DNA of 64,000 nucleotides from an uncultured Nitrososphaerota archaeon (GTDB taxonomy: Archaea; Thermoproteota; EX4484-205; JAAOZP01): NCBI GenBank assembly GCA_964616835.1, contig CAZTSG010000001.1, positions 8,830 to 72,829 on the forward strand, written 5' to 3'. Within the stretch, counting starts at the first letter, position 1. Every line of letters starts with the position of its first letter. The position numbers and the translations under genes were made by a program. The notes beneath the pieces were generated by a model, which did not search any database, was not told the origin of the DNA, and was given only the letters and a program-made list of their open reading frames with translations. Positions 2,143-52,466 of this stretch are shown piece after piece.

Positions 2143-3759
2143 TCAATAGTCTGACTCAAAAGTGTTTCTTAAAACTCCCTTCTTCTCCTGCTGCCTCCTG
2201 TATAATTCGCCGACTCTCTTCAAAGTATCTACTTCGGATAGTGGTTTATCGCTTCGTATCCTTGTTATTCTCGCAAACCTTAGGGCGAAGCCAGACCTGT
2301 ACTTCGGGCTCCTCTGTATTTCGCTGTAGGCTACTTCAACAACTATCTCCGGCTTAACCCAGACAGTATTATCTTCTTCACCTATCTTCAGCTCTAATAG
2401 TCTCCTCGTCATTTCTTCAAACTCCTCGTCAGTTAAACCCTTGAATGTTTTCCCTATTATCTCATAGTTTCCAGTCTCCTCGTCTAATGCTGCTAAGAAG
2501 TAATCGCTTAACCATCCTGTCCTCCTACCGTATCCCCATTGGGCACCTACAATAACCAGGTCCAAGTAGTCTGCTGTTTTCAGTTTAAACCAGAGGTTGC
2601 CTCTTGCTCCAGGTATGTAGGGGCTTTGGAGAGACTTAGCTACAACTCCCTCATGCCCTTCCTCAACAGCTTTTCTCATGAATTCCTCAGCCTCACTGAT
2701 GTTTGAAGTAATTATTCTAGGGGTTAATTCTGAAGGCTTTACGATTCTTTCAAGCTCTTCCCATCTCCTAGAATACGGCTCGTCTATTAACTGCCTGCCG
2801 TTCAGATAAATCACGTCGAAAAGATATAGTTTTAGAGGTATGCGCTTCATCTCCTCCTCGATATTCTTAACCTTAGTAAACCTCCTCATCAAGTCTTGGA
2901 ACGGCAACGGCCTGCCGTCAGCCCCTACGGCTATGGCTTCACCGTCGAGTATGGCTTCTTCAGCATCTACTCCGTTAACAACTTCTTCGACCACGTCTGG
3001 AATGCTCACAGTCACTTCCGTTAAACGCCTGCTGAAAATCTTAATCTCGCTCCCTTTCTTATGAATCTGTACCCTCGCCCCGTCAAACTTGTATTCGAGA
3101 GCAACAGCCTTATGATACTTGAATACCTCTTGAAAACTGTAGGCCATTTGCGCGAGCATCGGCTTAACCGGATGGAAAAGCGTTAGACTAATGGACTTTA
3201 AACCCTCCTTGCCTGAGGTGAGGGCGACTTCAGCAACCTTGCCAAGGTTTCCCGAGAACATTAAAGCCCTCCTGACGAGGTCTAGGCTAGTGTTGGATGC
3301 CTTAGAAATGGCTTCAAGCATTACCCCCTCTCCAACTCCATGCTGCATTTCTCCAAAAATGTTTTTCACAATATACTTTGCTTCAAGCTCTGAAGCTCTT
3401 TCAAGCATCGACCTTAACAGAAGCTCCTTATTCTCCCTGGACTTTGGTCCTGTAACCTTTGCAATCCTATCGAAATAGTCTGCAACATTTAAAATAGTGA
3501 GGGGCTTTTCGAAAAGAGTTTTCTGAGGTGTAGACTCTAAGATCCTGCTTATTGTTGCAAAGCCTATTTCAAGAGTTTTAGAAGAAGACTCCGGAAATAT
3601 TTCACCCACTATCAAGAGCACTGCTGGCGCTATTTCTTCCCTCTTAAGCTTCTTCAAGAACTCGCTTATCATCTTAACTTTCTCCAACCTCTTAGTTGTT
3701 CTGGAGAGTTTTTCACAGAGCTCCGCAAGCTTGCTGAACAACGTATACTGACCTTCCAT
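2143..3759 (-). CDS. lig: ATP-dependent DNA ligase
   Basis: 538 aa. The adenylation motif KxDG is present as EYKFDGARVQIH. The length and motif order are typical of archaeal ATP-dependent DNA ligases. Confidence 0.9.
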   Translation of the reverse strand: MEGQYTLFSKLAELCEKLSRTTKRLEKVKMISEFLKKLKREEIAPAVLLIVGEIFPESSSKTLEIGFATISRILESTPQKTLFEKPLTILNVADYFDRIAKVTGPKSRENKELLLRSMLERASELEAKYIVKNIFGEMQHGVGEGVMLEAISKASNTSLDLVRRALMFSGNLGKVAEVALTSGKEGLKSISLTLFHPVKPMLAQMAYSFQEVFKYHKAVALEYKFDGARVQIHKKGSEIKIFSRRLTEVTVSIPDVVEEVVNGVDAEEAILDGEAIAVGADGRPLPFQDLMRRFTKVKNIEEEMKRIPLKLYLFDVIYLNGRQLIDEPYSRRWEELERIVKPSELTPRIITSNISEAEEFMRKAVEEGHEGVVAKSLQSPYIPGARGNLWFKLKTADYLDLVIVGAQWGYGRRTGWLSDYFLAALDEETGNYEIIGKTFKGLTDEEFEEMTRRLLELKIGEEDNTVWVKPEIVVEVAYSEIQRSPKYRSGFALRFARITRIRSDKPLSEVDTLKRVGELYRRQQEKKGVLRNTFESDY

Positions 3760-4302: not shown

Positions 4303-5379
4303 TTAGCTAATCAGAAGTTCCTCTAGCCCAAGGGCTCTGTAATAAGCCTTTAGCGACCCTCCGTGCAGCAATACCCTCATGGCGGAGGCTAGTTTCACAG
4401 CAATCTCCTCTTCCCATCTCCTCCCAAACCTCTTCCTAGACTCCGCTGCAACACGTCTAATTGCTTCAGCATGGTTTAACCCCTTCTCTAGCAGGTTGAG
4501 AACCTCAAGAACGTCTCGGGGGATTTTTAACGCGCTAATCTCGTCTTCATAGCTTAGGGTTAAGAGCCTCAGGTATTCGCCTACTGTAACTGGTTTCCCA
4601 TTCCAGCATAGTGTTGCATTAACGCCTCTCCGAGCCGCCTCAACCCTAGACTGAAGATAGGCTTCATGCGTTAAATTGTTGCAGGCTTTACTTCCATTCA
4701 TCCAAGCTGAAGTCAAAATCCTCAGTATTGTCATCACGGTGCAAATGTACGGGGGAATGTTGCTGTCGCAAACCCTTATTTCAAGCGTAGGAGGCTTATG
4801 CTTATTCGCTGGGTTAAGATTCATCTCCCTGTAGTGGTTCTGGTTTAACTCGCCTTTGGTTACGGGTATGCAGTACCTTCCTCCAACGCGCAGCATCCTG
4901 TTAGACGAGTATCTCGTTATCCTCCTCCTCCAGACCGGTGAGTTGGAGGAAACCGCTATGAGGAAAGGAATATGGTCGTGAATATAGTTTGCTAGGCTCA
5001 GAGCCTCCTCTCTTCCCAACCCCTTCTCTTTAAAACCTATGTGGAAGTGTGCCCCTGCAAACCTGTCGTTCCACCCTCCTATTGGAAGTGGGAGAGCATT
5101 ACAGCTATTAGATGGATCAGCGTATTTCCCGAGACCTCGGTCTATAGCATATAGCGCCTCAGTTATGTTTTCAAAAGGCTTAGTAACGTATTCCGAACCT
5201 ATACTCTTATCGATGGTAAACCTTTCCCCGCCTTCCGAAGACTTTTCACTGGGAAGCAGCACGCTTCTCGATATTCTTTTCTCCCTAATCAAGATAGTGT
5301 AGCACTCTATCTCAACACCTATCGTGATAGGCTCCTTCTCCTCAACCAGCATGCAACTTGTGCTTCTCGTTTTCAGCAA
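4303..5379 (-). CDS. glutamate--cysteine ligase family 2 (YbdK-like carboxylate-amine ligase)
   Basis: 358 aa. Motifs GVEIECYTI (GxExE) and AGAHFHIGF (HxH.G) resemble the GCS2/YbdK family. Confidence 0.5.
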   Translation of the reverse strand: MLKTRSTSCMLVEEKEPITIGVEIECYTILIREKRISRSVLLPSEKSSEGGERFTIDKSIGSEYVTKPFENITEALYAIDRGLGKYADPSNSCNALPLPIGGWNDRFAGAHFHIGFKEKGLGREEALSLANYIHDHIPFLIAVSSNSPVWRRRITRYSSNRMLRVGGRYCIPVTKGELNQNHYREMNLNPANKHKPPTLEIRVCDSNIPPYICTVMTILRILTSAWMNGSKACNNLTHEAYLQSRVEAARRGVNATLCWNGKPVTVGEYLRLLTLSYEDEISALKIPRDVLEVLNLLEKGLNHAEAIRRVAAESRKRFGRRWEEEIAVKLASAMRVLLHGGSLKAYYRALGLEELLIS

Positions 5380-5479
5380 GCTACTAACGTTAAGGCGAAA
5401 TATAAAATTTATCTTATAATTAAATCTATTTTACTAAATGAATAATGGTTCTTTCCCATTATTCAACGAGGCTTTTCAA

Positions 5480-5800
5480 CGATTCCTGTTTTGAATCACG
5501 ATTCGTGTTCTTAACTGGTTTCAGTGTTTTAAACAGAGGTCTAAATCCTTTTAATCCTTCAACAGTTTTAAACAGGCTAGGAGAAACTGGAAAGATTTTT
5601 CCTAAGCCGATTATCTTTAAAAAACACGTCTTGCAGGAAAACAACTCTCTGAATAACACTGGGAAAAACTGTTTCCCAACCATAATTGAAGAATTCTCCG
5701 AAAACTGTTTGCATTAAAACAGTTAATTTCCGAGAGAGACTTCTAACATCATTGTCATTTCCAAAGCATTTTTTAACCCTTTTTCGAAAACAGATTGAAA
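5480..5800. promoter_or_regulatory. cluster of TGTTT(N)AAACA-type palindromes and half-sites in an AT-rich spacer
   Basis: Direct reading shows tgttttaaaca (~5524-5534), cagttttaaacag (~5563-5575), gggaaaaactgtttccc (~5661-5677) and aactgtttgcattaaaacagtt (~5703-5724, an 8-bp perfect inverted repeat). Further CTGTTT/AAACAG half-sites are present. Confidence 0.35.
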
Positions 5801-6233
5801 ATTGAAGATGCTTCAAATAAACCGGCTCTAGAAAGAAATGGTTTGAAATACTCTGTGTTTCTGAAAGCTATAGTATGCAAGACCAAGGAGACAAACTGGT
5901 TCCTAAAAAACCGTAAGCATGTGGAACATTGTAGCTGGCAAACCTATTTCTGGGCTTAGACGAACCTGCCTGCCATAGAAATTAATTCTAAGCGGGTTTC
6001 CCCGCCTGTTCAACACAGTTGAACCGTCTCAAATGGAGAGCTGAATATATGTTGAAACAAGAAGGGTTGCGAATAAGCATGCAGGCAACTATGGCTGAAG
6101 AATGTGTTTCTACTTGGTTTAAAACCTAGATTATTGATTCTACGATGTTGGATCAATGAAGGTTTATGGCTGTGCAAAGTTCAGGAAAACTTTATATCTA
6201 GGTATGTGATATACTTAGATAGGTGATATTAAG

Positions 6234-6644
6234 ATGTGTGGTGGAAGGAAACTGCCTGCTGGATCATGCTACCACGGTGAAGGAGGGTGCCACGGTGAAG
6301 GGGGGCACATCTATCTTAAGGAAACCCCTGTTAGAGGGCTTTTACACCTATCAATCCTGAACTTGGTTAAGAACGGGCCTGTTTACGGTGCTGAAATATA
6401 TAGGGCTTTAAAAGAAAAGTATAACATTGAGGCTCCAAAAGCCATAATCTACGGTCTACTGAGAAGAATGGAGTACGCTGGCTTCCTAGCTTCAACATGG
6501 GATGTGGAGGGTGGAGGGCCTGCGAGAAGAAAGTATAAGATTACTGAGGAAGGATTAGACTATCTTAAAGACTCGCTGGAAAACCTTAGGAAGGTTAAGG
6601 GGGTAATCGACATTCTCCTCGCTGAGGATGTTGGCAAAGCCTAA
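6234..6644 (+). CDS. PadR family transcriptional regulator with a Cys/His-rich N-terminal extension
   Basis: Winged-helix PadR signature (YGAEIYRAL ... YGLLRRMEYAGFL ... RRKYKITEEG). The N-terminus reads CGG...CYHGEGGCHGEGGH, a tandem HGEGG peptide repeat. It immediately precedes an ABC transporter operon. Confidence 0.7.
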   Translation: MCGGRKLPAGSCYHGEGGCHGEGGHIYLKETPVRGLLHLSILNLVKNGPVYGAEIYRALKEKYNIEAPKAIIYGLLRRMEYAGFLASTWDVEGGGPARRKYKITEEGLDYLKDSLENLRKVKGVIDILLAEDVGKA

Positions 6645-6658
6645 AGGCGGCGAATCCT

Positions 6659-7579
6659 GTGAAAGCTATAGATGCTTTAGACCTTTACAAAAGGTTCGGT
6701 AGCATAGTGGCTGTAGACAGTGTTAGCTTCCAGGTGGAGGAAGGCGAGATATTCGGTCTTCTAGGTCCAAACGGTGCCGGTAAGACGACGACTATCCGCA
6801 TGTTAACAGGCATACTCAAGCCTGATAGAGGAGAGGCTAGAATAATGGGGTACAATATCCATAAGGATCCTGTTAAAGCAAGAATGTTGATCGGGGTGGT
6901 TCCTGAAGAGGCTAATCCGTATCCTGACCTGTCAGCTTGGGATAACCTGATGCTGGTTGGACGCTTATATGGTCTTCCGAAACACGCAGTGGGGGACAGA
7001 GCCTCTAGTCTGCTAAGACTCTTAGACCTATACGATGCTAGGAAACGGAGGGCTGGAAACCTTTCTAAGGGGATGAGGCAGAAGCTTCTCGTGGCTATGG
7101 CTTTAATCGGAGAGCCTAAGGTACTCTTCTTAGATGAACCTACATCCGGGCTTGATGTGTTGAGCACTAGAAAGATACGTAGCCTAATCCTTGACTTGAA
7201 GAAGAATGGTGTCACCATTCTTCTGACGACGCATAACGTAGAGGAGGCTGGAACTCTATGCGACAGGATTCTCATAATAAATGGTGGGCGAGTGGTTGAG
7301 ATGGGGACTCCAGAAGACCTTAGAATTAAGTCCGGGCTGTACACTTATGTGTCTGTGACGCTTAACAGAGCAGTAGACGAGAAGGATGCAGCGGGATTCT
7401 TTGATGAGTGGGATTACAGGATTCAGGGTTCTAGGATTCTCTTTGTTTGCAGTGATCTGACAAAACTGATGGTTAGAATAGTTGAATACGCTAAGGCGAA
7501 GGGTCTCGACATAGTCAACATAAGCACAGCACCGCCAAGCTTAGAGGACGTGTTTGTAAAAGTCATTGCAGGAGGATAG
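6659..7579 (+). CDS. ABC transporter ATP-binding protein (ABC-2/DrrA type), GTG start
   Basis: Walker A GPNGAGKTT, ABC signature LSKGMRQKL and Walker B LLFLDEPTSGLD. 306 aa with a C-terminal extension. Confidence 0.85.
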   Translation: MKAIDALDLYKRFGSIVAVDSVSFQVEEGEIFGLLGPNGAGKTTTIRMLTGILKPDRGEARIMGYNIHKDPVKARMLIGVVPEEANPYPDLSAWDNLMLVGRLYGLPKHAVGDRASSLLRLLDLYDARKRRAGNLSKGMRQKLLVAMALIGEPKVLFLDEPTSGLDVLSTRKIRSLILDLKKNGVTILLTTHNVEEAGTLCDRILIINGGRVVEMGTPEDLRIKSGLYTYVSVTLNRAVDEKDAAGFFDEWDYRIQGSRILFVCSDLTKLMVRIVEYAKAKGLDIVNISTAPPSLEDVFVKVIAGG

Positions 7580-8345
7580 AAGGATGAAAACCGTATCCTT
7601 TAGGCATTTCTCGATAGGTGTATGGACAATATGCTGGAAGGACATTAAACTTTACTATGCTAAGGGACCAATAGTTGTTACAGGTGTGCTTTTCCCTCTT
7701 TTTCTTTGGGCTGCCTTCTACATGGGCAGAGGCCTAGATTTTAATGAAGGATTGGCATCACTAGTAACGTTATCAATCTTCTTCACCTCTTCTTCAGTCA
7801 CACCAATAATAGCACCATGGGAAACTAGGCAGAGAACATTGGAGATGCTTATGTCCAGACCAGTAACAGTGACTACAATACTGGTTGGTGATATCTTGGC
7901 TTCAACGATCTTCGGGTTAATCTTCATAATTCCAATATTTTTATGCGGCGTAGTCCTAGGAGCGATACCAAGCAACGTTTTACTGGCTGCACTATTAACT
8001 GTGATTACCGCCGTAGGATTCTCATCTCTTGGAGTGCTTTTCTCCGCGTTACCTACCGATACACCTGCAGACGTCGTCTTATTAGCTAGCACCGTTAAGC
8101 TGCCCTTAATATTCGTTAGCGGAGTGTTAATACCGCTTTCACAGCTTCCGGAATGGGCTCTAGCAATAGCTGTGGTCTCTCCCTTAACTTATCCCACAGA
8201 CCTTTTGAGGGGGCTTTACATAGGCAACACGTTTTTCCCAATGTTCGCAGATTTTTCAGCTACAGTTGTCTTAACAGTCATATTTACACTAGGTGCTCTA
8301 ATACTTCATAAAAGAACGCTCTTCGCTAGACTACAAAAAAGATAG
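7566..8345 (+). CDS. ABC-2 family transporter permease
   Basis: 259 aa with six predicted TM helices. Its start overlaps the end of the ATPase gene. Confidence 0.7.
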   Translation: MQEDRRMKTVSFRHFSIGVWTICWKDIKLYYAKGPIVVTGVLFPLFLWAAFYMGRGLDFNEGLASLVTLSIFFTSSSVTPIIAPWETRQRTLEMLMSRPVTVTTILVGDILASTIFGLIFIIPIFLCGVVLGAIPSNVLLAALLTVITAVGFSSLGVLFSALPTDTPADVVLLASTVKLPLIFVSGVLIPLSQLPEWALAIAVVSPLTYPTDLLRGLYIGNTFFPMFADFSATVVLTVIFTLGALILHKRTLFARLQKR

Positions 8346-8391
8346 CTAAACTTTGGGTTGCTAACAATCTCCATCCAGAATTACGTTTTTA

Positions 8392-8898
8392 CTAATGGGT
8401 TATCCCTATTTTCGTATATATTTCTCTCGGGCTTTTTGCTTCAACTACTAGATTTACAAAATCGGCTCTATTAAAAAGCTCGGGAGGTGCGTACCTGCCT
8501 GTTAAAACCACGTCAGTCTCCTCTGGAGCTTCGTCTAACAGCTTCAACACTTCTTCAACAGGCACTAGGCCAACGTAAGTTGCTAGAGCAAGCTCGTCCA
8601 GAACCAGGAGGGCAGGTTTCTCTCTAAGCTTCTCCCTAGCCAATGAAAGGCCTTTTCTCGCCGCCTCCTTATCCTCTTCGGAAGGATTCCTGAGGTCTAC
8701 CCAGCTTTCTCTGCCTGCTAGGTGGATCTCGTACTCCGGTTTTAAGCGCTCAGACACAAGGTATTCACCAGTTTTCCACCCTTTCATGAACTGTATTATC
8801 ACGACCCTAAGCCCATGGCCTACTGCTCTAACCGCTAAGCCTATAGCATTGGTGGTCTTGCCCGCCCCGGTACCGGTGTAGAGAAATACCTTACCCAC
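8392..8898 (-). CDS. cobA: cob(I)yrinic acid a,c-diamide / corrinoid adenosyltransferase (CobA/BtuR type)
   Basis: N-terminal P-loop GTGAGKTTNAIGLAVRAVGHG and IIQFMKG, characteristic of the CobA/CobO family. 168 aa. Confidence 0.65.
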   Translation of the reverse strand: MGKVFLYTGTGAGKTTNAIGLAVRAVGHGLRVVIIQFMKGWKTGEYLVSERLKPEYEIHLAGRESWVDLRNPSEEDKEAARKGLSLAREKLREKPALLVLDELALATYVGLVPVEEVLKLLDEAPEETDVVLTGRYAPPELFNRADFVNLVVEAKSPREIYTKIGITH

Positions 8899-8911: not shown

Positions 8912-11527
8912 CTAAGCTACGGGGCATATGCTCCATCCGCAGTCTAGGCAGTGGAGGCATCCCCCCTCCTTAACAAGCCTCCTGCTGCCACAGTTGGGAC
9001 ACTGAGTGTATGTGTCAGTGCTCTCACTCCTGTCGAGAATCAGAACAGGTTTCTCAATACTAGTCACTGCCCTGGATGACATGCTGCTCGAGGTTTCTTC
9101 AAACCCTTTAATTTCGACTCCAAGCGATTTGGCAAGCTCTATCGTAGAGTTGCTGACTATCCTAGCATATTCCCCCGACTTAGAGGATGGTGCTACTAAC
9201 ACCTGCGAGGGGAGAGACCCCTCCCTATATATCGTAACGCCTTTCACACCCATTGCATGTGCCAGCATGAATGCTTTCTGAACGTCCTCCACAGTAACCC
9301 AGCTAGGCATGTTTATTGTTTTGCTTACTGCAGCACATATCCACTTAGTGAACTCTGCCTGCGCCCTAACGTGATCCCACCACGGTATGTCGTAGGCTAC
9401 TAGGAAGACTCTTGTTAACTCGCCGGGTAGGTCTAGTCCTATGAGCGAACCTCCGTTGTCTGAAACCATTTTAAGAACCCTCTCATCATACAGACCGTTC
9501 TCTCTTAGTGCTTTCTCAAACTCGACGTCAACATAGTAGAAGGTTCCTACAGTAACCCTTTTCTCATATATGAGTGCGAACTGCGGTTCTATTCCTGAAG
9601 AAACGTCTACTAGCATGGATATGGAGCCTGTTGGCGCTATGGTTGTGACTTCAGCATTCCTAATCCCGAACCTAATTATCTCGTGCTGTAGCTCGCGCCA
9701 CGGAAGGGTCTGCCAATCCTCATGGTAGAATCCCTCAATAGGCATCCCGCCTTCGGGGTATGAAGAGTTGGGGTACAGGGGAAACGGGCCGCGCTCCTTA
9801 GAGAGTTGACATGATTCCTTCATAGCGTGGAAAGTCAAGTGTTCCGCGATCCTGTTCATCATCCTGAAGCCTTCCTCACTGTTATACGGTATTCTGAGCG
9901 CGAAAAGCGTGTCTGCAAGACCCATGACTCCGAGGCCGACTTTCCTCGTCAGCTTTGTCTCACGTTCTATCTCCGGTATTGGAAACTTGTTAACATCTAT
10001 AACGTTGTCAAGAAACCTTAATGCAATTCTAATCGTTCTATCATATTCATCCCAATCAAAATACGTCTTTCCTCCTTCGTTTCTTATGAAAGCGTAGAGG
10101 TTTACTGAACCAAGGTTGCATGACTCATAAGGATACAATGGCTCTTCTCCGCAGGGGTTTGTCGATTTTATTAGCCCCTTATGCTTTGCAAGAATGTTTC
10201 TCCTGTTAATATTGTCGAGGAATACGACTCCAGGGTCTCCGGTTCTCCAAGCCATTTCAGCAATCTTCCAGAAGATATCGCGCGCATCCATGGTTTTCCA
10301 AACACTGCCGTTTCTAGGGTTTACCAACGGGTATTTGCCATCCTTCTTCAGATAATCCCAGAATTCTTCTTTAATCATAACGGATATGTTGAAGTTCTCT
10401 AGTCTTCCCCGCTCAGACTTTGACGTTATGAAAGCCTCTATGTCGGGATGGTCTATTTCCAGGATCCCCATGTTGGCTCCTCTTCTCTTTCCCCCCTGCT
10501 TCACAACTTCGGTAACAGTGTCTATTATCCTCATGAAGGAGACTGGGCCGCTTGCAACGCCGGAGGTGCTTGAAACAATGTCCCCAGCTGGCCTTAGCTT
10601 AGAGTAGTTTATCCCCACTCCACCGCCTGATTTGAAGATTATAGCTGCCTGAGTGGCTGCGTTCATTATGGATTCAATATTATCATCTATATCTAGGACG
10701 AAGCATGCTGAAAGCTGACCCAGCCTTGTCCCCGCATTGAAGAGCGTGGGCGAGTTAGGCATAAACCTTTTAGAGACCATGAGACTATAATATGCTTGAA
10801 AATTCTCGTAATAGTTGTCGAACTCGCCTGAGCTCAGCATCTTCAGGAAATCGCTCCAAGAAACCCTCATTCTACCCTGTGAGTTAAGCTCGTCGTAAAG
10901 CGTCTTCATACGCTCCAAATGATGCTCGTTCCAAGTTACGGAATAGCCCCCGCCACTCTTCCCGAGACCCAGCTTTCCAGCATAAGACTTGGCGTCGAAA
11001 TCCTCCTTTGGGAAAACGGGCAAACCCCCCTCCTTGTGGAAAACCCTCGGATCATAGAGTATATCCGGTATTACTATGGTCATCGCAACCCTCTGAAACA
11101 TCTGCTTAGGAGTTTCTATCAGCCTCCCGTTCTCATCCTTGAGCAGGTAGCGGTTGACCATGAGCCTGAGAGCGTTTACTGAGAACTCTTTCTCAACCTC
11201 GTCTATGAAATCCTTCTGGAGGAGCGCCTTCTTCTCCTCCCTTATACGCTCCCTCTCCTTCCTGTAGAGAATATACGCTTTAGCAACCTCGTAAAGGTCG
11301 AATTTCACGAGAGCAAGTTCAACAACATCCTGTATCTCTTCAACATGGGGAATCTTCCCTTCTTCATACTTCTTGCTTAGAACTTCAAGAACATAGTTGA
11401 CAACCTTATCCAATACCTTCTCATCATACTGTTTCACGCTCACCATGGCTTTCATAACAGCATTCCTAATTCTCTCAGGATTGAAATCAACAATCCTACC
11501 GTCCCTCTTCACAACCTTCTTATCCAT
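8912..11527 (-). CDS. nrdJ: class II (adenosylcobalamin-dependent) ribonucleoside reductase with N-terminal ATP-cone and C-terminal zinc ribbon
   Basis: 871 aa. ATP-cone VVKRDGRIVDFNPERIRNAV. Active-site region STNPCGEEPLY ... CNLGS. C-terminal CPNCG...CLHCLDCG zinc ribbon. No intein-sized insertion. Confidence 0.8.
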   Translation of the reverse strand: MDKKVVKRDGRIVDFNPERIRNAVMKAMVSVKQYDEKVLDKVVNYVLEVLSKKYEEGKIPHVEEIQDVVELALVKFDLYEVAKAYILYRKERERIREEKKALLQKDFIDEVEKEFSVNALRLMVNRYLLKDENGRLIETPKQMFQRVAMTIVIPDILYDPRVFHKEGGLPVFPKEDFDAKSYAGKLGLGKSGGGYSVTWNEHHLERMKTLYDELNSQGRMRVSWSDFLKMLSSGEFDNYYENFQAYYSLMVSKRFMPNSPTLFNAGTRLGQLSACFVLDIDDNIESIMNAATQAAIIFKSGGGVGINYSKLRPAGDIVSSTSGVASGPVSFMRIIDTVTEVVKQGGKRRGANMGILEIDHPDIEAFITSKSERGRLENFNISVMIKEEFWDYLKKDGKYPLVNPRNGSVWKTMDARDIFWKIAEMAWRTGDPGVVFLDNINRRNILAKHKGLIKSTNPCGEEPLYPYESCNLGSVNLYAFIRNEGGKTYFDWDEYDRTIRIALRFLDNVIDVNKFPIPEIERETKLTRKVGLGVMGLADTLFALRIPYNSEEGFRMMNRIAEHLTFHAMKESCQLSKERGPFPLYPNSSYPEGGMPIEGFYHEDWQTLPWRELQHEIIRFGIRNAEVTTIAPTGSISMLVDVSSGIEPQFALIYEKRVTVGTFYYVDVEFEKALRENGLYDERVLKMVSDNGGSLIGLDLPGELTRVFLVAYDIPWWDHVRAQAEFTKWICAAVSKTINMPSWVTVEDVQKAFMLAHAMGVKGVTIYREGSLPSQVLVAPSSKSGEYARIVSNSTIELAKSLGVEIKGFEETSSSMSSRAVTSIEKPVLILDRSESTDTYTQCPNCGSRRLVKEGGCLHCLDCGWSICPVA

Positions 11528-24871: not shown

Positions 24872-25198
24872 ATGAGCGAGCGGCTCGAGGAATTAAAGAT
24901 TCTCGCGAGACACTACGGTGAGCTGAGGCACCAAGTAATAGCCAGCGTGAAGAAAATAAACGATTACTCCCTAATACTCTTCAAAGCATTCCTAGAGTAC
25001 GCGGAGAAAAGAAAAGGGGAGAACCTGGAGCCCCATGCTCTTCTAAACGAGTTTCTCAACACGCTGGCCCTAGACAGGGATGAGGACAGGGGGACAAGAG
25101 CCTCCCTAGCCAGAAGATTCTACAAGCTTGCTGAAAAACATGTTCGAAACCCCTGCGAGCAAAAAAGCCTCCTGCAATACCTTAAGCACCAACCATAG
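24872..25198 (+). CDS. hypothetical protein
   Basis: 108-aa ORF between the beta subunit gene and tuf. No family recognised. Confidence 0.3.
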   Translation: MSERLEELKILARHYGELRHQVIASVKKINDYSLILFKAFLEYAEKRKGENLEPHALLNEFLNTLALDRDEDRGTRASLARRFYKLAEKHVRNPCEQKSLLQYLKHQP

Positions 25199-25289
25199 AA
25201 CACCACTGTCTCCCGATCCCATTAAATCAAACCATTATCTTACAGTGAAAAACCGTCGAAAGATATTTGGGTCTATCGCTTTAGAGAAA

Positions 25290-25305
25290 ACATTGAAAAA
25301 ACAAG
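25290..25305 (-). terminator. oligo-T tract just downstream of tuf
   Basis: The plus-strand A7 run (gaaaaaac, ~25295-25301) is a T7 run on the tuf transcript, about 16 nt past the stop. Confidence 0.35.
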
Positions 25306-25316
25306 TTGCGGGGAAA

Positions 25317-26642
25317 CTACTTGGCTTCGAAAGGAACCTTCTCAGGAATCTCAGTCACGATGCCGGCGGCGACCGTCATACCCATGTCTCTGATCGCAAA
25401 CCTGCCGAGCTGCGGAAACTCAGAGTAAACCTCGATGGCAATCGGCCTCAGGGGCCTGAACTTGACGATAGCAGCGTCACCAGTCTTCAAGAAGTCAGGC
25501 TTCTCCTGAATAACCGCGCCAGTACGAGGGTCAATCTTCTTCAGAAGCTCCTCGAAGGTGCAGGCAACCTGCTCAGTATGCACGTGAAGCACAGGAGTAT
25601 AGCCCGCAGCAATAGCAGTAGGATGCCTGATAACGATAATCCTGCCTACGAAAGCCTTCGCGACAGTCGGCGGGTTCTCAGGATACCCCATAACCATACC
25701 TCTCCTCAACTCCTGCTTGGAAACACCCTTGACAGCCATGCCGACATTGTCACCGGGCTCAGCCTTCTCAAGCTGCGTATGATGCATCTCAATAGTCTTC
25801 AGCTCAACAATCTTATCCAGAGGCCTAATGACAACCCTAGTGTTAGGCTTCAACACACCGGTCTCAACCCTGCCCGCGGGAACAGTGCCAACACCCGGAA
25901 TAGTGAAAACCTGCTGAAGAGGAATCCTCAAAGGCTTGTCAACAGGCCTAGGCGGAGGCTGAAACGCGTCGAGAGCCTCAATCAAAGTAGGACCCTTATA
26001 CCAAGGCATCTTATCACTAGGCTTAACAAGATTATCACCAGTCCAGCCGCTGATAGGAATAATCGGAATCGGGTTCTTCTCAAGGTTAAAGCCGATACGC
26101 CTCAGCAAATCCTCAATGTTCTTCTTAACCTCGTTAAACCTGTCCTCGCCCCAATTAACAGAAGGATCATCCATCTTGTTAACGCCAATAACAATCTGTC
26201 TAACACCCAAAGTGAAAAGCAGAAAAGCATGCTCAGTAGTCTGGCCCTCAGGACTCACACCAGCCTCGAACTCACCCTTCTTCGCAGACACAATCAGCAA
26301 AGCACTATCAGCCTGACTAGCACCAGTAATCATATTCTTCACAAAATCACGGTGGCCAGGCGCATCAATGATCGTATAGTAATATTTCTTTGTTTCAAAC
26401 TTCACGTACGCAGCATCAATAGTAACACCACGCTCACGCTCCTCCTTCAACTTATCCAGCACCCACGCAAACTTGAAAGTATCCCCGAGACCAGTCTTAG
26501 CAGACTCAGCCTCCAGCTCCCTCATCTTCCTCTCATCAACGTAACCAGTCAAGTAAAGCAAGTGACCAGTAGTAGTACTCTTGCCGTGGTCCACATGTCC
26601 GCAAACGACGAGATTTAGGTGTGGTTTGCTTGACGAACTCAT
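25317..26642 (-). CDS. tuf: translation elongation factor 1-alpha (aEF-1A)
   Basis: G-domain motifs GHVDHGKST, DAPGH and NKMD. 441 aa. Confidence 0.95.
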   Translation of the reverse strand: MSSSSKPHLNLVVCGHVDHGKSTTTGHLLYLTGYVDERKMRELEAESAKTGLGDTFKFAWVLDKLKEERERGVTIDAAYVKFETKKYYYTIIDAPGHRDFVKNMITGASQADSALLIVSAKKGEFEAGVSPEGQTTEHAFLLFTLGVRQIVIGVNKMDDPSVNWGEDRFNEVKKNIEDLLRRIGFNLEKNPIPIIPISGWTGDNLVKPSDKMPWYKGPTLIEALDAFQPPPRPVDKPLRIPLQQVFTIPGVGTVPAGRVETGVLKPNTRVVIRPLDKIVELKTIEMHHTQLEKAEPGDNVGMAVKGVSKQELRRGMVMGYPENPPTVAKAFVGRIIVIRHPTAIAAGYTPVLHVHTEQVACTFEELLKKIDPRTGAVIQEKPDFLKTGDAAIVKFRPLRPIAIEVYSEFPQLGRFAIRDMGMTVAAGIVTEIPEKVPFEAK

Positions 26643-26649
26643 TTTTCTT

Positions 26650-26700
26650 TCCTCCCTTGCTGTTTCATTAGCCTGATGGGGGGCTATTTAAGGTTTAAGG
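26650..26700 (-). promoter_or_regulatory. putative tuf promoter (TATA-like TTAAATA) and Shine-Dalgarno GGGAGG
   Basis: The reverse complement of 26643-26700 reads ccTTAAATAgcccccc...gcaagGGAGGaaagaaaaATG, with SD at -12 and a TATA-like element upstream. Confidence 0.3.
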
Positions 26701-27123
26701 TTTCATTATGGCAGTGATTTTTTACTGAGTGCTTTTTTTAGTTGTTTTTCCTGAGGGTGGTTGGGCGATGTGTTTAGCGTTGCTTTCTTTTCAAGATTCT
26801 CTATAAGTAAAATTTGGACAGTGGGGCTCTTCAAGCAAGCCTTCAGGCTGGCTTTCTTTCATACTAACGTTTATGTAAATCGTAAATCCGACTAAGACTC
26901 GGAGGCAGTTATGCTTAAAAGAATATTCGCATCTTATTGTTAGTGGATGGGCGTTAGGGAGCGCTTCATAAGCTCGATAGAGTACCTCCGCAAACTAGGG
27001 TTCTTCGAAGAATTGCTGGAAACGATTGAGGTTATGCAGGATGAGGATCTGAGTGGTTGAAAAAACAGGCTAGCATTTCTTTTCACCATAGTTCAAAAAT
27101 GGCTGGGTTGCTAGTGTCGCAAA

Positions 27124-27155
27124 AGTTTATAAATTATAATTCATAATTCATAATT
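27124..27155 (+). promoter_or_regulatory. direct-repeat operator/TATA region upstream of vapB
   Basis: tttataaattataattcataattcataatt contains the tandem unit ataattc/ataattcataatt directly abutting the vapB start. Confidence 0.35.
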
Positions 27156-27356
27156 ATGAGTACCATACCCGTGAGTAAGGAGACGAAGAAAAGATTGGAG
27201 AGCCTTAAGGGGGAGAAAGCATGGGATGAGTTTCTGAACGAGCTTGCGAACATAGCTCTAAGTGAAAACAGGCTTAAAAATAGGAAAAGAATGCAGAAAC
27301 TTCTGGAAATTGGGTATGATGAAGTCAGGGTTAAAAAATGGGCGAGAGAATACTAG
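27156..27356 (+). CDS. vapB: antitoxin (VapB-like small DNA-binding protein)
   Basis: 66-aa charged protein immediately upstream of a PIN-domain gene that it overlaps by 19 nt. Confidence 0.55.
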   Translation: MSTIPVSKETKKRLESLKGEKAWDEFLNELANIALSENRLKNRKRMQKLLEIGYDEVRVKKWAREY

Positions 27357-27700
27357 TGGATACAGATTGTCTAATCGATTACTATAGGGGGGAACTAGAG
27401 TTAAACCCGGAGGATTCACACCATGTTTCGGAAATAACTGTCTACGAGTTCATCAGGGGGACGAGGAATGTGAAGGAAGCTAAGAGGATACTGGAGAGAT
27501 CTTTCAGCATTGTTTGGCTCGACAACGAGATTCTGGAGAAAGCCTCGGAAATATGGAGGAGACTCAAGGCCTCAGGCAGGCTTGTTGAAGACAGGAACCT
27601 AATAATAGGGAGCACGGCAGTAGTGAAGAGGCTCAAGCTGTTAACGAGAAACATTAAGCATTACGAGGGGCTGAAAACATACGGGTTAGTTTTTTATTGA
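27338..27700 (+). CDS. vapC: PIN-domain ribonuclease toxin VapC
   Basis: N-terminal ILVDTDCLIDYY acidic motif typical of PIN. 120 aa. Confidence 0.75.
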   Translation: MGERILVDTDCLIDYYRGELELNPEDSHHVSEITVYEFIRGTRNVKEAKRILERSFSIVWLDNEILEKASEIWRRLKASGRLVEDRNLIIGSTAVVKRLKLLTRNIKHYEGLKTYGLVFY

Positions 27701-39454: not shown

Positions 39455-39750
39455 GCAGCGTCGAGTGGGGTAGGGAAAAGGTGGTAATAAACGTTTCCCC
39501 TTTAAAAGAAGCCGGGAAGCTGGTTTTCAACCTCGGAAACACAGGGGGCAGCCGATTAAACCTCAAGTCCGCAGCACGACGCTTCGTCGAAGCCAGCGTC
39601 TTCTACACAATATCCCGCCCGCCGGCATTTTAACACCTTAATTGAGCTTTGGAAACAACGCCACCTGAAGAATGAAGAATTAATCAAACAGGGGCTTAAA
39701 ACCCTTGGGAGAAAAGTTAAATAAGGACATTGGGCTTAAAAGAGAAATGT

Positions 39751-39892
39751 CCCGCGGTAGCTCAGCCTGGTAGAGCTTCCGGCTGTAGTCCTCCACCGCG
39801 GGTGGGGGCGTTCAGCCTACCGGGCGAACAGAAACCGGAGAGCCGCGCGTGCCGCGCCTGGAGTGTCGCTGGTTCAAATCCAGCCCGCGGGA
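39751..39892 (+). tRNA. tRNA-Tyr (anticodon GUA) with an approximately 68-nt intron at the canonical 37/38 position
   Basis: Acceptor CCCGCGG/CCGCGGG with C1-G72 and A73 (archaeal Tyr identity). D-arm GCTC...GAGC. Anticodon stem TCCGG/CTGGA (one G-U) with loop CTGTAG|intron|C. T-arm GCTGG-TTCAAAT-CCAGC. Confidence 0.65.
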
Positions 39893-40088
39893 CTTCTAGA
39901 AAGCTCAAAAGTTTGTGTCTCATATGCAACAATATGTCTTAATTCGTCTTGAAGATTTATTAACATAAATCTCTTGCTTATCCTTCCCATCTATCTTCCA
40001 TCTATCTTGTTTTAGAAACCGCTTTTTAATTTAAAGGCTCTAATTAATTTTTGTTATTTTTTCTTATTAACAGTGAATACTTAAATAT

Positions 40089-40436
40089 ATGTACTCTCAT
40101 AATACTGGAGCCATGAAGCAAGCGGGGAAGAAGCCAGAGGTATTCAAGGCAAAAGTGTTTAAGGCTTTAAGCGATCCTGCTAGACTGGAGATCATTGAGC
40201 TACTTAAGGGAGGAGGAAAGTATGTCAGCGATATTGTTAAGAAGACCGGTGTTGTTCAGCCAGCGGTTTCACGCCACTTGAAGATACTTAAGGAGTGCGG
40301 TGTGGTTGAGGAAAGTAAAGTTGGGAATAAGAGGCTTTACAAGGTTACTGACGCAAGGATATTCAAAGTCATTAACTCGCTCGATCCAAACTTGATAGAG
40401 GGTCTGAAAAAGCACGTGCTTGAGCGCATGGTTTAA
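40089..40436 (+). CDS. ArsR/SmtB family transcriptional regulator
   Basis: HTH region LSDPARLEIIELLKGGGKYVSDIVKKTGVVQPAVSRHLKILKECGVV. 115 aa. Confidence 0.7.
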   Translation: MYSHNTGAMKQAGKKPEVFKAKVFKALSDPARLEIIELLKGGGKYVSDIVKKTGVVQPAVSRHLKILKECGVVEESKVGNKRLYKVTDARIFKVINSLDPNLIEGLKKHVLERMV

Positions 40437-44719: not shown

Positions 44720-45742
44720 ATGGGTGTTCAACTGGGAGACATAATTCCGGCGAGGGAGATAAGGCTGGAGAGCCTTTATAACAAGAGGATTGCGATAGAC
44801 ATGTATAACACGCTCTACCAGTTTCTCACTATAATAAGGGGGGCTGACGGAAGGCCTCTAATGGATGCTAAGGGAAGGATCACGAGCCACCTTTCGGGAA
44901 TATTCTATAGGACGTGCAACTTTCTCTCTGCGGGGCTTAAGCCGATTTACGTCTTCGACGGCGAGCCTCCGAAGATTAAGAGGGAGGAATCGGAGAGAAG
45001 AAGGATGCTGCGTGAGGAAGCCTCTAGGAAATACGAGGAGGCCTTAGCAACCGGGAGGATTGAGGAGGCTCGTAAGTACGCACAGATGTCCGCGACCCTA
45101 GACGAGTATCTTATTCAATCGGCTGAGAAGCTAATCAGCCTAATGGGCATACCTGTCGTACACGCGCCGTCGGAGGGGGAGGCTCAGGCTGCGCACATGG
45201 TTTCTACGGGCGTGGCAGACTATGTTGGCAGCCAGGATTTCGACTCCCTCCTATTCGGGGGGAAGATGCTCGTGAGAAACCTTGCGATAACGGGTAGAAG
45301 GAAGCTCCCAGGTAAGAAAGCGTACGTGGAGGTTAATCCAGAGGAGATCTCTCTGGAAGAGACTTTGAAGACGCTTGCGATCACTAGGGAGCAGTTGATA
45401 GATATTGCTCTGCTCGTAGGCACTGATTACACTGAGGGTATAAAGGGCATTGGACCCAAGAGGGCGCTGGAGCTCGTTAGAAGCGGGTTGAGCCTGGAAG
45501 ATGTTTTCAAGAAGTACGGAGAAGACTTGTCTAAGATCTCGAGATATTACGAGGCTAAGGAATTCTTCCTGCATCCGCAGGTTAAGGACTTGGGCGAGCT
45601 GGAGTGGAGAGATATAGATGAGGATGGTGTTATAAGATTCCTGCACGACGAGCATGACTTCTCCTTGGACAGGGTTGCAAAAGCCATTGAAGAGGTTAAG
45701 AAGAAAAAGCCTGCGGAAGGAGCCTTATCAAAGTGGTTTTAA
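44720..45742 (+). CDS. fen: flap endonuclease 1
   Basis: N-terminal MGVQLGDIIPAREIRLESLYNKRIAIDMYNTLYQFL and 340 aa, a classic FEN-1. Confidence 0.9.
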   Translation: MGVQLGDIIPAREIRLESLYNKRIAIDMYNTLYQFLTIIRGADGRPLMDAKGRITSHLSGIFYRTCNFLSAGLKPIYVFDGEPPKIKREESERRRMLREEASRKYEEALATGRIEEARKYAQMSATLDEYLIQSAEKLISLMGIPVVHAPSEGEAQAAHMVSTGVADYVGSQDFDSLLFGGKMLVRNLAITGRRKLPGKKAYVEVNPEEISLEETLKTLAITREQLIDIALLVGTDYTEGIKGIGPKRALELVRSGLSLEDVFKKYGEDLSKISRYYEAKEFFLHPQVKDLGELEWRDIDEDGVIRFLHDEHDFSLDRVAKAIEEVKKKKPAEGALSKWF

Positions 45743-50012: not shown

Positions 50013-52466
50013 TCACATGAAGTCTTTAAGCTTTAGGCTCTTCCTAGGAGGCTCTATCTCTATACCCAGCGGGTCGAGAACCTGTTCGAAAGTAGCTTTC
50101 ATGACTTCCAGATACTTATCCAAGTCTATCTCTTCTATCCGAGCTAGTTTAACAGGCTTAACGCCGTTCTTAACCTTAACGTAGGATATTATGTCGCCAG
50201 CCCTAGCTTTGACTCCCAACTCCCTCTCAAGCTGTTTCGCTGCTTTAACGTGTTGCGGCGTGCTCTTCTCATAGTCGTTTAAAGGCTTGCTTAGCATTAC
50301 GTCGAAAGCAAGCTCCTCGAGGCTAAGCTGCCGGTTGACAAGCTTCTCAACATACTCGTTTATCATGTTCTTTATGCTGGCGACAGCCGTGTTAAACTCC
50401 TCCTCGTTCCTAACCTTGCTGAGCACGTTAATCATATCGTGAAAAGCCTGTTTCACGAACTTTGGTGTTGAGCTCTTCTTCCCGACAAGACCCTTTATAT
50501 CTACATTGCCGTCCTCAGTAACTCCCAAATAGTTCTTCTTACGCTGGCTGAAAACCCCATACCTGTAAACCTTGTCGATGTTAAGCTCAATATTATATTT
50601 TTTCCTCACGAATTCGATGAGCTTCTCAACCTCCTCGGGCTTGGGGTCTCTCAGGAAGATGGAATCAGTATCTCCGTAGACGACCTCTATGCCAAGGTTG
50701 TTCGCCGTTTCAACAAGCTCGGTGAAGATCCCCCTACCTATCCAGGTTACTGTCTCGGCTGCTGAAGGAGCGTAGAAATGAAAAGTGTCTGCTCCCATAA
50801 CTCCGTAACTAGCGTTTATGAAAACCTTTATCGCCCTCTGTACAACGTCGTAGAAAGCACGCTTCTCCACGGTTTCAGCCTTCTTGGAAAGGGGCTGGTA
50901 GTATTTTACACGGAGCTCTCTCAAGGCGCCTATTATGGAGCTCTCTATGCCTCTTCTCTTCACGCATATCCAGTGCGGAGAATTCATTGGAGTATTGCTT
51001 TTACACTCTTCATGCCTACACCTGACGGTCTCGTAACTTATGTTGAAATTCATTATTATGCTCGGATATAGGGATGCGAAGTCAAGTATCACTAGGTTAA
51101 AGTACAGTCCCGGCTTTGGCTCAAGCACTATCGCCCCTCTATACTTCTTACCCTTTATGATTGCTTCGGACTTCTTCTCGCTCTTGAGCTGTAAAATATC
51201 CTCCTGCCTCGGTATCAGGTAATTGTTTCTCCTATGTAAACTTAAGAGCATGCTTTTAATCCACGTGGAGACACCGTGCCTGACAACATCCTCCATGGGC
51301 AGCCTGCTTATCCTCATGAAGAGTATGAGGAGCTTGAGTAGAAGATAGTCCCTATTGGCGATCAAGTCGAAGGTTATCTCAGCGTCTCTGAAACAGTATT
51401 CAGCAAGCTCCCTCGGCTTCAGCATCCAAATATCTTCAGTCAGAGCTATCTTCCCCTTGCCGAGTAAAGCCCTGCCTATGGCGTCTAAGGTCACCTCCTT
51501 GTAAATACCTCCGTAAGCGTAGTTTTGTATCGATTTGTTGAAGAAAACCCTGTAAAGGTCTATGTGAACCCCTTCGGTGAGGTCGACATAGTCCTTGCCT
51601 TTTTCCAATGGGGCTTCCTCGTCTAGCGATAGCTTGCTAGCCCTATTGTACAGGTAGAGAAGGTCGAATTTATCGCCGTTGAAGGTCACTAGGAACGGGT
51701 ATTTCCTTATTTCCTTAAACACTTCTTTCAAAAGTTTCTCTTCGCTTGAAACATGGATTATTTTCTTAACCCCGTCGTACTCCTCCCCGTCGAAATCGTC
51801 AAGAACATAAACCTTGTTTTCCCCCGCGTTGGATTTGAAGGCGACGGAAATTATCGGGTCCTCCGCCTTACTAGCATCAGGAACATGATTGGGGCCGGGG
51901 GGCTTTACTTCTATGTCGAGTGAGGAAAGCTTCATGAAAGGTATCGGCTGGTTCAGCATCTCGATGAGTTCTCTCATCTCCGGGTATTCGGATTCTGGCG
52001 GCTTGACAGCTTCCTCAAGCGTCGTTTCCAAACGTCTTTCAACAAGCTTCCCATCTACTATGTCGTAATAGAACCCCGGCTTCTTGTCAGTATCGTATAT
52101 GTAGCACCAGGTGTAGTGAATATCCGCTTCCCAAGCTCTCCCCAATATCTCCCTTATCGAGGTTGCGGACCCTCCTATGGACAAAGGGTCCTTTGCAACG
52201 ACTTTTCTGAAAACCCTCTCCCTATCTTCCAGCAGATCATACTTCTTAACTTCCTCAATCCTATCAAAGCCGTGATGATTAATCAACTGCTGGTTGCTCA
52301 TCAATTCCTCTATGCTTAAATCGGTTAGCAAATACGGCTGATGAGCCTCGTTAGACGGGATAATCACCATCTCCCGCTTCTCCGGATCGTATAGTTTAAG
52401 CAAAACCCTTCTGTTGTCTCCATCGTAGGAGGCGGAGACTAGTATCAGCCCCTTCCTTTCTTCCAT
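50013..52466 (-). CDS. polB: DNA polymerase, family B
   Basis: 817 aa. Exo I region LDIEV, motif B KVFINASYGVMG (KxxxNSxYG), motif C VVYGDTDSIFL. No intein-sized insert. Confidence 0.85.
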   Translation of the reverse strand: MEERKGLILVSASYDGDNRRVLLKLYDPEKREMVIIPSNEAHQPYLLTDLSIEELMSNQQLINHHGFDRIEEVKKYDLLEDRERVFRKVVAKDPLSIGGSATSIREILGRAWEADIHYTWCYIYDTDKKPGFYYDIVDGKLVERRLETTLEEAVKPPESEYPEMRELIEMLNQPIPFMKLSSLDIEVKPPGPNHVPDASKAEDPIISVAFKSNAGENKVYVLDDFDGEEYDGVKKIIHVSSEEKLLKEVFKEIRKYPFLVTFNGDKFDLLYLYNRASKLSLDEEAPLEKGKDYVDLTEGVHIDLYRVFFNKSIQNYAYGGIYKEVTLDAIGRALLGKGKIALTEDIWMLKPRELAEYCFRDAEITFDLIANRDYLLLKLLILFMRISRLPMEDVVRHGVSTWIKSMLLSLHRRNNYLIPRQEDILQLKSEKKSEAIIKGKKYRGAIVLEPKPGLYFNLVILDFASLYPSIIMNFNISYETVRCRHEECKSNTPMNSPHWICVKRRGIESSIIGALRELRVKYYQPLSKKAETVEKRAFYDVVQRAIKVFINASYGVMGADTFHFYAPSAAETVTWIGRGIFTELVETANNLGIEVVYGDTDSIFLRDPKPEEVEKLIEFVRKKYNIELNIDKVYRYGVFSQRKKNYLGVTEDGNVDIKGLVGKKSSTPKFVKQAFHDMINVLSKVRNEEEFNTAVASIKNMINEYVEKLVNRQLSLEELAFDVMLSKPLNDYEKSTPQHVKAAKQLERELGVKARAGDIISYVKVKNGVKPVKLARIEEIDLDKYLEVMKATFEQVLDPLGIEIEPPRKSLKLKDFM

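Follow-up and report, generated by a model that had tools for sequence, protein, structure and literature searches.

A gap in the genes of an uncultured archaeon, at positions 5380-6233 of a 64-kb window (the whole stretch of DNA that we analysed, 64,000 nucleotides), separates a GCS2-like gene from padR and the ABC transporter genes behind it. Comparison with related loci resolves this gap as a composite of two parts: an ancestral, AT-rich, single-copy non-coding spacer (5380 to ~6045, with no strand assigned) and the upstream region of an inserted PadR-ABC cassette (~6046-6233). The spacer is found at the same locus in every Brockarchaeota relative that we could locate, and it carries a marked excess of the word CTGTTT/AAACAG. 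We tentatively favour, as plausible rather than probable, the reading that the spacer is an extended upstream region that would control the GCS2-like/ligase unit at the DNA level and would be bound by a DNA-binding protein.

An ancestral spacer and an inserted cassette

The GCS2-like gene (glutamate-cysteine ligase family 2, PF04107) occupies 4303-5379 on the minus strand, starting at ATG 5352 or TTG 5379, and padR (PF03551) lies at 6234-6644 on the plus strand with its ATG at 6234, with genes for an ABC ATPase and an ABC-2 permease behind it. The interval between the GCS2-like gene and padR contains no credible gene. The 854 bases of the gap form the longest non-coding stretch of the window, a ranking made after allowing for a spurious open reading frame (ORF) antisense to an EF-1alpha gene and for a small vapB. 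The initial annotation, which was made from this DNA alone, had called it by far the largest gene-free stretch, which overstates its lead over gaps of 634 nt (39455-40088, with an intron-containing tRNA inside) and 513 nt (26643-27155). Its description of the gap as AT-rich and non-coding, with ORFs that overlap one another, was borne out: GC content is 35.6% against 47.6% for the window (32% in 5380-5820 and 39.5% in 5821-6233), and the frames of 90, 74, 79, 54 and 55 amino acids are mutually overlapping. Tandem Repeats Finder (TRF) reported no tandem repeat in 5380-6233, a repeat search of the gap returned two-copy families only and not the regularly spaced direct repeats of a CRISPR or tandem-repeat array, and a tRNA scan found none in the gap. 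Phasing of A/T tracts at 10-11 bp, of the kind associated with curvature or histone positioning, is absent from the spacer. A scan for sigma-70 promoters and terminators was uninformative, the host being archaeal.

The gene order in relatives is ribonucleotide reductase (RNR), cobA/btuR, a gap of 650-850 nt, the GCS2-like gene and DNA ligase, with no padR-ABC. A genome scan recovered 13 Brockarchaeota loci in this RNR-cobA / spacer / GCS2-ligase arrangement, and at all Brockarchaeota loci found the counterpart of the spacer is a gap of 655-845 nt between cobA/btuR and the GCS2-like gene. The GCS2 orthologues are 67-84% identical in Brockarchaeota/Thermoproteota metagenome-assembled genomes (MAGs); proteins identical to those of the window's flanking genes occur on hot-spring metagenome contigs, and NCBI names the orthologues of the flanking genes Brockarchaeota; on this evidence the window derives from a hot-spring population of Brockarchaeota (Thermoproteota). 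The relatives' gaps are homologous to the window from 5353 to ~6045 (blastn E-values down to 2e-158, nhmmer across the full 700 positions; alignments A2 and A4-A6), and homology with one relative, L015, stops near 6029-6045. The spacer is single-copy and bound to its locus, with nhmmer matches in the cobA-GCS2 context only. A metagenome scan with a degenerate pattern for the conserved core described below returned mostly chance matches, but all 7 true homologous loci among them, 4 of which are new contigs, have the cobA-GCS2 context; the matches included no transcript-like contigs.

Two general properties of the spacer are kept across these loci. A length of 655-845 nt is preserved in 14/14 species, where most gaps in the same genomes are shorter than 100 nt; the species compared were the window, its sister lineage L002 and 12 genome-scan loci, with L013 and L021 representing the same species. 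Low GC content is likewise kept, the spacer having 30-40% in all species, 7-12 points below its own locus.

The PadR-ABC cassette (6234-8345, plus strand, identified by Pfam), by comparison, is specific at this locus to the lineages of the window and L002. By their called genes, L010, L011 and L013 have no such cassette between cobA and the spacer, and by stop-to-stop frames and tblastn neither do the further relatives. The plus-strand upstream region at 6046-6233 has no counterpart in the PadR-less relatives and was therefore carried in with the cassette. An earlier suggestion that the gap might be a mobile-element scar is thus right in one respect only, that a PadR-ABC cassette has been inserted at the cobA-proximal edge of the spacer.

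Contigs encoding an identical PadR represent two lineages, whose gaps are ~93% identical and differ by indels of 1 and 2 nt. The window and L002 (ena:ERZ27247235 k141_928009) are mostly 70-80% identical but reach 90-100% over ~4900-8400, a tract that runs from the 5' part of the GCS2-like gene across the spacer and all of the cassette, with a PadR protein 100% identical. By its sequence, this tract looks like the product of recent homologous recombination or transfer.

Elsewhere in Brockarchaeota, PadR-ABC homologues of 72-75% identity sit at unrelated loci, and only the last ~55 nt upstream of their padR ATG align with the window. The conserved segment holds a TATA element, CTTTATAT, and a palindrome, TAGGTAT-N5-ATAC(C/T)TA, which together correspond to 6190-6217 of the window; here the TATA element is at 6190-6197, within the cassette's upstream region, and the palindrome reads TAGGTAT-GTGAT-ATACTTA at 6199-6217, with 7-bp arms. 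PadR family proteins bind palindromes, and 6190-6217 is the only place where we found a palindrome that overlaps the predicted padR promoter and is conserved upstream of padR homologues. The palindrome at 6199-6217 is probably the PadR autoregulatory operator, and the 50 nt nearest to padR resemble the usual promoter of an autoregulated PadR-ABC unit. A comparable system is LmrR-LmrCD of Lactococcus lactis, in which a PadR-family repressor autoregulates an adjacent ABC exporter. The likeness holds for 6190-8345 only, in the sequence of padR, ABC ATPase and permease and in the palindrome over the promoter; unlike its bacterial counterpart, the archaeal cassette occurs at varied Brockarchaeota loci, and the comparison leaves 5380-6045 unexplained.

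One of these homologous loci differs in gene content. In L148 (GCA_017601395.1 JAFNIQ010000011.1, MAG GD2_1) the ~820 nt that follow the padR homologue have no called ABC genes, and the same stretch holds an ABC ATPase and a permease in L150, where the locus is otherwise the same. This difference suggests either a deletion or an assembly or annotation gap.

The initial annotation had proposed the TGTTT/AAACA palindromes of the gap as an array of operators for the downstream PadR. Such an array would suit the palindrome binding known for the family, and it does adjoin padR in this window, but we regard this explanation as very improbable. The palindrome-bearing DNA has homologues in species without padR here, and the PadR homologues located elsewhere possess only the last ~55 nt, with the different palindrome TAGGTAT-N5-ATACCTA. 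The sites are, moreover, 440-750 nt from the padR ATG. Because the array belongs to the ancestral spacer, which is present where padR is not, we conclude that the TGTTT/AAACA sites are not PadR operators.

A clustered word and two conserved islands

Between 5480 and 5800, TGTTT/AAACA occurs 10 times, compared with 2.35 +/- 1.45 expected from dinucleotide shuffles, and the longer CTGTTT/AAACAG occurs 7 times against 0.42 expected; for both words, 0/1000 shuffles reached the observed count. The two 320-nt bins that cover this cluster are the richest in the whole 64 kb. The half-site had been described as non-random, and it is indeed more frequent here than the local AT content predicts. The seven longer words (5486-5793) are CTGTTT at 5486, 5669 and 5705 and AAACAG at 5531, 5570, 5717 and 5788, with an extended consensus of CTGTTT[T/A/C]AAAA. 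They stand in both orientations on one strand, which fits recognition of DNA rather than of RNA. Half-sites are often arranged as dyads with variable spacing, such as CTGTTTTCGAAAACAG in L002.

The same word is over-represented in the homologous spacers, with enrichment at P<=0.04 in 12/15. Among hexamers it ranks first in clade A, with z 8.4, and fifth in clade B, with z 6.3; if excess is required in both clades, it comes out on top. Neutral sites are saturated between the clades, yet the same word is in excess in both, a pattern that argues for selection on the word.

The excess lies in the word, not in hairpins. In the AT-rich half, perfect inverted repeats do not exceed the number expected by chance (P=0.16), and over the whole gap their excess is marginal (P=0.02), although the structures that the initial annotation built on the half-site do exist, some with altered details. 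The near-palindrome GGGAAAAACTGTTTCCC is present at 5661-5677 and is kept in close relatives only. The 8-bp perfect inverted repeat AACTGTTT-GCATTA-AAACAGTT (5703-5710/5717-5724) has a spacer of 6 nt instead of the 5 given for it. A 10-bp perfect inverted repeat, TGAATAATGG-N7-CCATTATTCA (5439-5465), is lineage-specific, with degraded forms in relatives. At 5992-6039 three hairpins stand side by side, GCGGG-TTTC-CCCGC, GTTCAAC-ACA-GTTGAAC and TCTC-AAATG-GAGA; the second of these, previously placed at about 6011-6027, is at 6008-6024. The three are confined to the lineages of the window and L002, where they lie at the border of the cassette insertion, and the local fold at 5992-6039 has an energy of -21.8 kcal/mol in the window and -19.5 in L002, compared with -4 to -14 in 13 other relatives.

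Several relatives also have direct repeats 16-24 nt apart in the centre of the spacer (L017 2517-2566, L023 2563-2600, L013 4560-4602 and L020 2558-2600); L017, for instance, has TTCAAnnnnTTTTCAA three times, and AGYGTTGCTTKAAAA occurs in two copies in clade B. No clear equivalent exists in the window, and the top repeat scores were not above those of shuffles.

Position-by-position conservation is concentrated in two islands. Alignment A6 and a MAFFT alignment of 15 sequences both contain a 42-bp block at 5395-5435 that is near-invariant in 15/15 and reads, in the sense of the minus-strand GCS2-like gene, ..AGTAAAATAGATTTAATTATAgGAtAAAaTTTATATTTyGCC. By the archaeal promoter consensus, a purine-rich factor B recognition element (BRE) with an A/T-rich TATA box ~25 nt upstream of the start of transcription, on which we base the promoter role, this block includes a putative BRE/TATA-like element for GCS2 (plus-strand coordinates 5398-5413) and a second TATA-like element readable the opposite way (5413-5425). 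The segment GATAAA-TTTTATATTT, the promoter candidate, is invariant in the 15 sequences and ends ~20 nt before TTG 5379. We therefore infer, from the consensus match, that the block may comprise the GCS2 promoter plus a second element. The other island is a 12-bp core, AACAGTTAATTT, at 5718-5729 (A6 columns 375-392), which consists of the right arm and flank of the 8-bp repeat and is the sole interior island near-invariant in 15/15 sequences, ~300 bp upstream of the promoter block. The left arm of the repeat is unconserved, and so the palindrome itself is not the conserved unit.

The rest of the spacer drifts. Identity of the spacer interior and identity at four-fold sites of cobA, GCS2 and ligase stand at ~1:1 over 66 species pairs (interior/four-fold 0.93/0.94, 0.86/0.89, 0.75/0.69-0.84 and 0.60/0.63-0.64), and between clades both are near saturation, at 0.36-0.45 for the spacer and 0.38-0.48 for four-fold sites. 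Close pairs show lower conservation in the spacer than in the flanking genes, and the outlier pairs coincide with recombination tracts. A case for strong constraint from the ~79% spacer identity to L015, compared with 58% at GCS2 four-fold sites, failed against this 66-pair calibration, recombination being able to distort single pairs.

These rates would suit a spacer that is mostly neutral filler, in which the functional part is the promoter block and perhaps the 12-bp core. On this explanation the remainder would be DNA in slow decay, which might for instance descend from a gene that the Brockarchaeota ancestor lost, and the excess of the word would be left over or stem from a mutational bias. 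The ~1:1 relation to four-fold sites and the weaker conservation in close pairs both favour filler, as do the long repeats, which are not above chance, and the hairpins, which are lineage-specific. However, filler would hardly be expected to keep a length of 655-845 nt in 14 species whose four-fold sites are saturated and most of whose gaps are below 100 nt, or to over-represent the same hexamer in both clades, and the spacer contains no gene relic recognizable by Pfam and does contain an invariant 12-nt interior island. On balance we consider filler unlikely.

The control region that we tentatively favour would work as follows. A DNA-binding protein would occupy the CTGTTT/AAACAG half-sites and the 12-bp core, and once bound would act on the 42-bp promoter block beside GCS2; individual sites may turn over. 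The spacer may also insulate the GCS2-ligase unit from the upstream RNR-cobA unit, and T-tracts just upstream of the promoter block may stop read-through from RNR-cobA. The suggestion that the gap regulates its flanking genes is thus plausible for the GCS2-like gene and fails for padR, since the palindromes are kept in padR-less relatives. The spacer loosely fits the known class of archaeal BRE/TATA promoters with upstream factor sites of the Lrp/Ptr2 type: it has a TATA/BRE-like block at the right distance and repeated short, dyad-like upstream sites separated by fast-evolving sequence. It differs from them in its length, 650-850 bp against tens of bp, in the variable spacing of its sites and in having no linked regulator gene.

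Several observations weigh against a control region of this kind. No regulator gene is conserved beside the spacer. Archaeal control regions are usually shorter than 100 bp, and one of 650-850 bp would be unusually long. A search of the 64-kb window with CTGTTTNAAA, which follows the proposal of the initial annotation to look for a regulon but covers these 64 kb only, found two sites, both in the spacer and none elsewhere, and thus gave no evidence of a regulon. Motif positions differ between clades, and outside the islands the between-clade alignment is near random, so that site turnover is indistinguishable from misalignment. Most of the spacer, as calibrated above, diverges about as fast as four-fold sites, and much of it may be filler. 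Finally, folding over the whole length beats column shuffles on the GCS2-sense strand (the minus strand of the window), with z-scores of -3.7 and -3.4 in the two clades, compared with -0.6 and -1.0 on the other strand and -1.1 to +1.0 for a coding control.

Coding, RNA and replication-origin tests

The spacer fails the tested defining features of coding genes, structured RNAs, Orc1/ORB (origin recognition box) origins and repeat arrays. Not one reading frame stays open across the species, and in L017, L022 and L026 the gap contains no stop-free frame of at least 60 codons. Indels between close pairs are mostly of 1-2 nt, substitutions are spread evenly across the three phases with no period-3 or codon-phase pattern, and a six-frame Pfam scan of the spacer gave no credible match and no gene relic. 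A small protein gene, for which the 90-aa ORF at 5445-5717 is the best example, is accordingly scarcely credible to us. Its ATG is ~25 nt downstream of a TATA-like element, a leaderless geometry, and the ORF was called in L001, L008 and L009. Against this, indels of 1 and 2 nt disrupt its reading frame in the sister lineage, L016 and L017 lack its ATG, and the general tests of cross-species frame, codon phase and Pfam similarity fail as well.

The possibility of an unannotated non-coding RNA, raised in the initial annotation, fared no better in its structured form. In the window, Rfam returned no match at gathering score and nothing below E=0.88 within 5200-6400, and in 9 homologous loci it returned no match at E<=0.1. 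RNAalifold on 15 sequences gave consensus energies of -2.4 and 0 kcal/mol for the two strands, with no shared fold, and folding the clades separately placed helices at different columns, none of them common. Consensus energies in 150-nt windows were -1 to -16 kcal/mol, with z-scores that disagree between clades. An apparent covariation in a set of 6 sequences analysed with RNAalifold did not hold in further folding. Structural RNAs of hyperthermophiles have a G+C content clearly above the genome background, and the spacer, at 30-40% GC, compares with 65-69% for the tRNAs of the window. Oligo-T tracts, the archaeal termination signal, are not depleted (1-8 per strand): the counts are 39 where 39.5 are expected for one strand and 51 where 42 are expected for the other. 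Their density thus matches expectation on both strands, and selection is not favouring a transcript that runs across the spacer.

A rival explanation is one or more short, unstructured non-coding transcripts. Examples would be a divergent promoter-associated RNA that uses the second TATA-like element and begins around 5445 on the plus strand, and a small RNA of the GCS2-sense strand whose end is the T-tract that stands just upstream of the GCS2 promoter. In their favour, the 42-bp block is invariant in both halves, of which the second reads as a plus-strand TATA; there is a T5-6 tract near the core, at ~320-340 nt from the putative transcription start site (TSS); and the whole-length fold z-score of about -3.5 is confined to the GCS2-sense strand. 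Yet neither an Rfam match in 10 loci nor any helix common to both clades was found, local consensus folds and GC content are as weak as given above, the motif stands in both orientations, and oligo-T is undepleted, the first tract in clade B being only ~40 nt from the putative divergent TSS. One or more such transcripts therefore strike us as unlikely. A homotypic cluster of a short word in a few hundred bases of fast-evolving non-coding DNA also recalls the sponge RNAs CsrB/RsmZ. The spacer differs from these in the two orientations of its word, in its undepleted oligo-T and in the lack of conserved presentation of the word in hairpin loops.

An origin-like role had also been suggested for the gap. 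In archaeal origins with ORB elements, the ORB core is defined as TTCC...GAA (PMC1904270), and archaeal origins are normally replicator-initiator pairs (PMC4010727), although the Hyperthermus butylicus origin was reported to be without an adjacent initiator gene (bioRxiv 10.64898/2026.08.15.744077). Neither the pattern TTCC-N3-6-G/GAA nor TCCANNNGAAA occurs on either strand of the spacers (15/15). There is also no conserved inverted ORB pair: the best 20-nt pair (17/20 matches) is shared only by the window and L015, at P ~0.05 against shuffles, and the top inverted pairs of other species differ and are at chance level. This pair, GTTCAAC-TGT-GTTGAAC-AGGCGGGG at 6008-6027 with an inverted partner at 5557-5582, was considered as an ORB-like dyad with G-string and rejected, being at chance level and absent in the other species. 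A Pfam scan of 29 window ORFs, which took in all the long ones except two of >1,000 aa and left ~38 shorter ones aside, revealed neither Orc1/Cdc6 nor a WhiP-like protein, and no initiator gene is present in the Pfam-annotated flanks of +/-3-5 kb of L010, L011 and L013. The neighbours in loci with called genes are RNR, cobA, GCS2-like, ligase, GNAT and ABC genes. The GC-skew check proposed in the initial annotation showed no inflection at 5-6 kb in the cumulative curve of the 64-kb window, where skew tracks gene strand.

The spacer thus departs from archaeal oriC regions (ORB/DUE/ORB, DUE being the DNA unwinding element, with orc1/cdc6 or whiP), having no TTCC..GAA core, G-string, conserved inverted pair, adjacent initiator gene or skew change within the 64 kb, and resembles them in being a long AT-rich conserved intergenic region with repeated words and replication-gene surroundings. 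A non-canonical replication origin or chromosome-maintenance site, whose CTGTTT/AAACAG words would be read by an initiator encoded elsewhere, is in our judgement quite improbable. A conserved, AT-rich, non-coding, single-copy region with a homotypic word cluster would suit it, as would a neighbourhood rich in replication genes (RNR, DNA ligase, FEN1, PolB and PolD DP1), the central direct repeats 16-24 nt apart in several species, and the Hyperthermus butylicus precedent. In addition to the negative results for ORB and mini-ORB cores, G-string pairs, initiators and skew, most genes to the right point towards the spacer, including the two >1,000-aa ORFs at 32-39 kb, which are possibly RNA polymerase. 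Replication genes are unusually concentrated in these 64 kb: an ATP-dependent DNA ligase (2143-3759), RNR (8912-11527), FEN1/XPG (44720-45742), a family B polymerase (50013-52466) and the PolD small subunit DP1 (59980-61458).

A broader alternative, which we also hold to be improbable, is a clade-specific chromosomal element undescribed in archaea, either an origin, partition or organisation site that a non-Orc factor would recognize by its CTGTTT/AAACAG repeats or the template of a fast-evolving motif-array RNA. If that were true, the element would be one kept in every Brockarchaeota genome for its density of sites and its length, and not for its sequence.

Neighbouring loci and significance

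Several other features of the window came to light. The class II RNR at 8912-11527 (minus strand) has 871 aa and is intein-free in the window and L002 lineages; in the related Brockarchaeota L010, L011 and L013 it has ~1265 aa and contains an intein with a LAGLIDADG endonuclease (PF14890, PF14528). The second-longest gap of the window, 39455-40088, upstream of an ArsR/TrmB-like regulator gene (40089-40436), holds a 142-nt Rfam tRNA at 39751-39892 on the plus strand (46.9 bits) that is presumably intron-containing and was missed by ARAGORN. The spurious ORF allowed for in the gap ranking is the longest at 25128-26642 (496 aa, plus strand, low complexity, no Pfam match) and is antisense to a 441-aa, EF-1alpha-like GTPase (GHVDHGKST) at 25317-26642 on the minus strand. 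On the plus strand at 27156-27700, the gene for a 120-aa PIN-domain protein is overlapped at its start by a 66-aa ORF, the two making a probable VapBC toxin-antitoxin pair, and the 513-nt stretch before it (26643-27155) has no ORF of at least 50 aa.

Brockarchaeota are uncultured, and we know of nothing on their gene control or replication. A non-coding region of 650-850 bp at one locus in every member gives such work a concrete target. The comparison also removes a misleading link, as the palindromes of the spacer are unrelated to PadR, and it documents the PadR-ABC cassette as having moved into the locus and then apparently been exchanged between two lineages by recombination.

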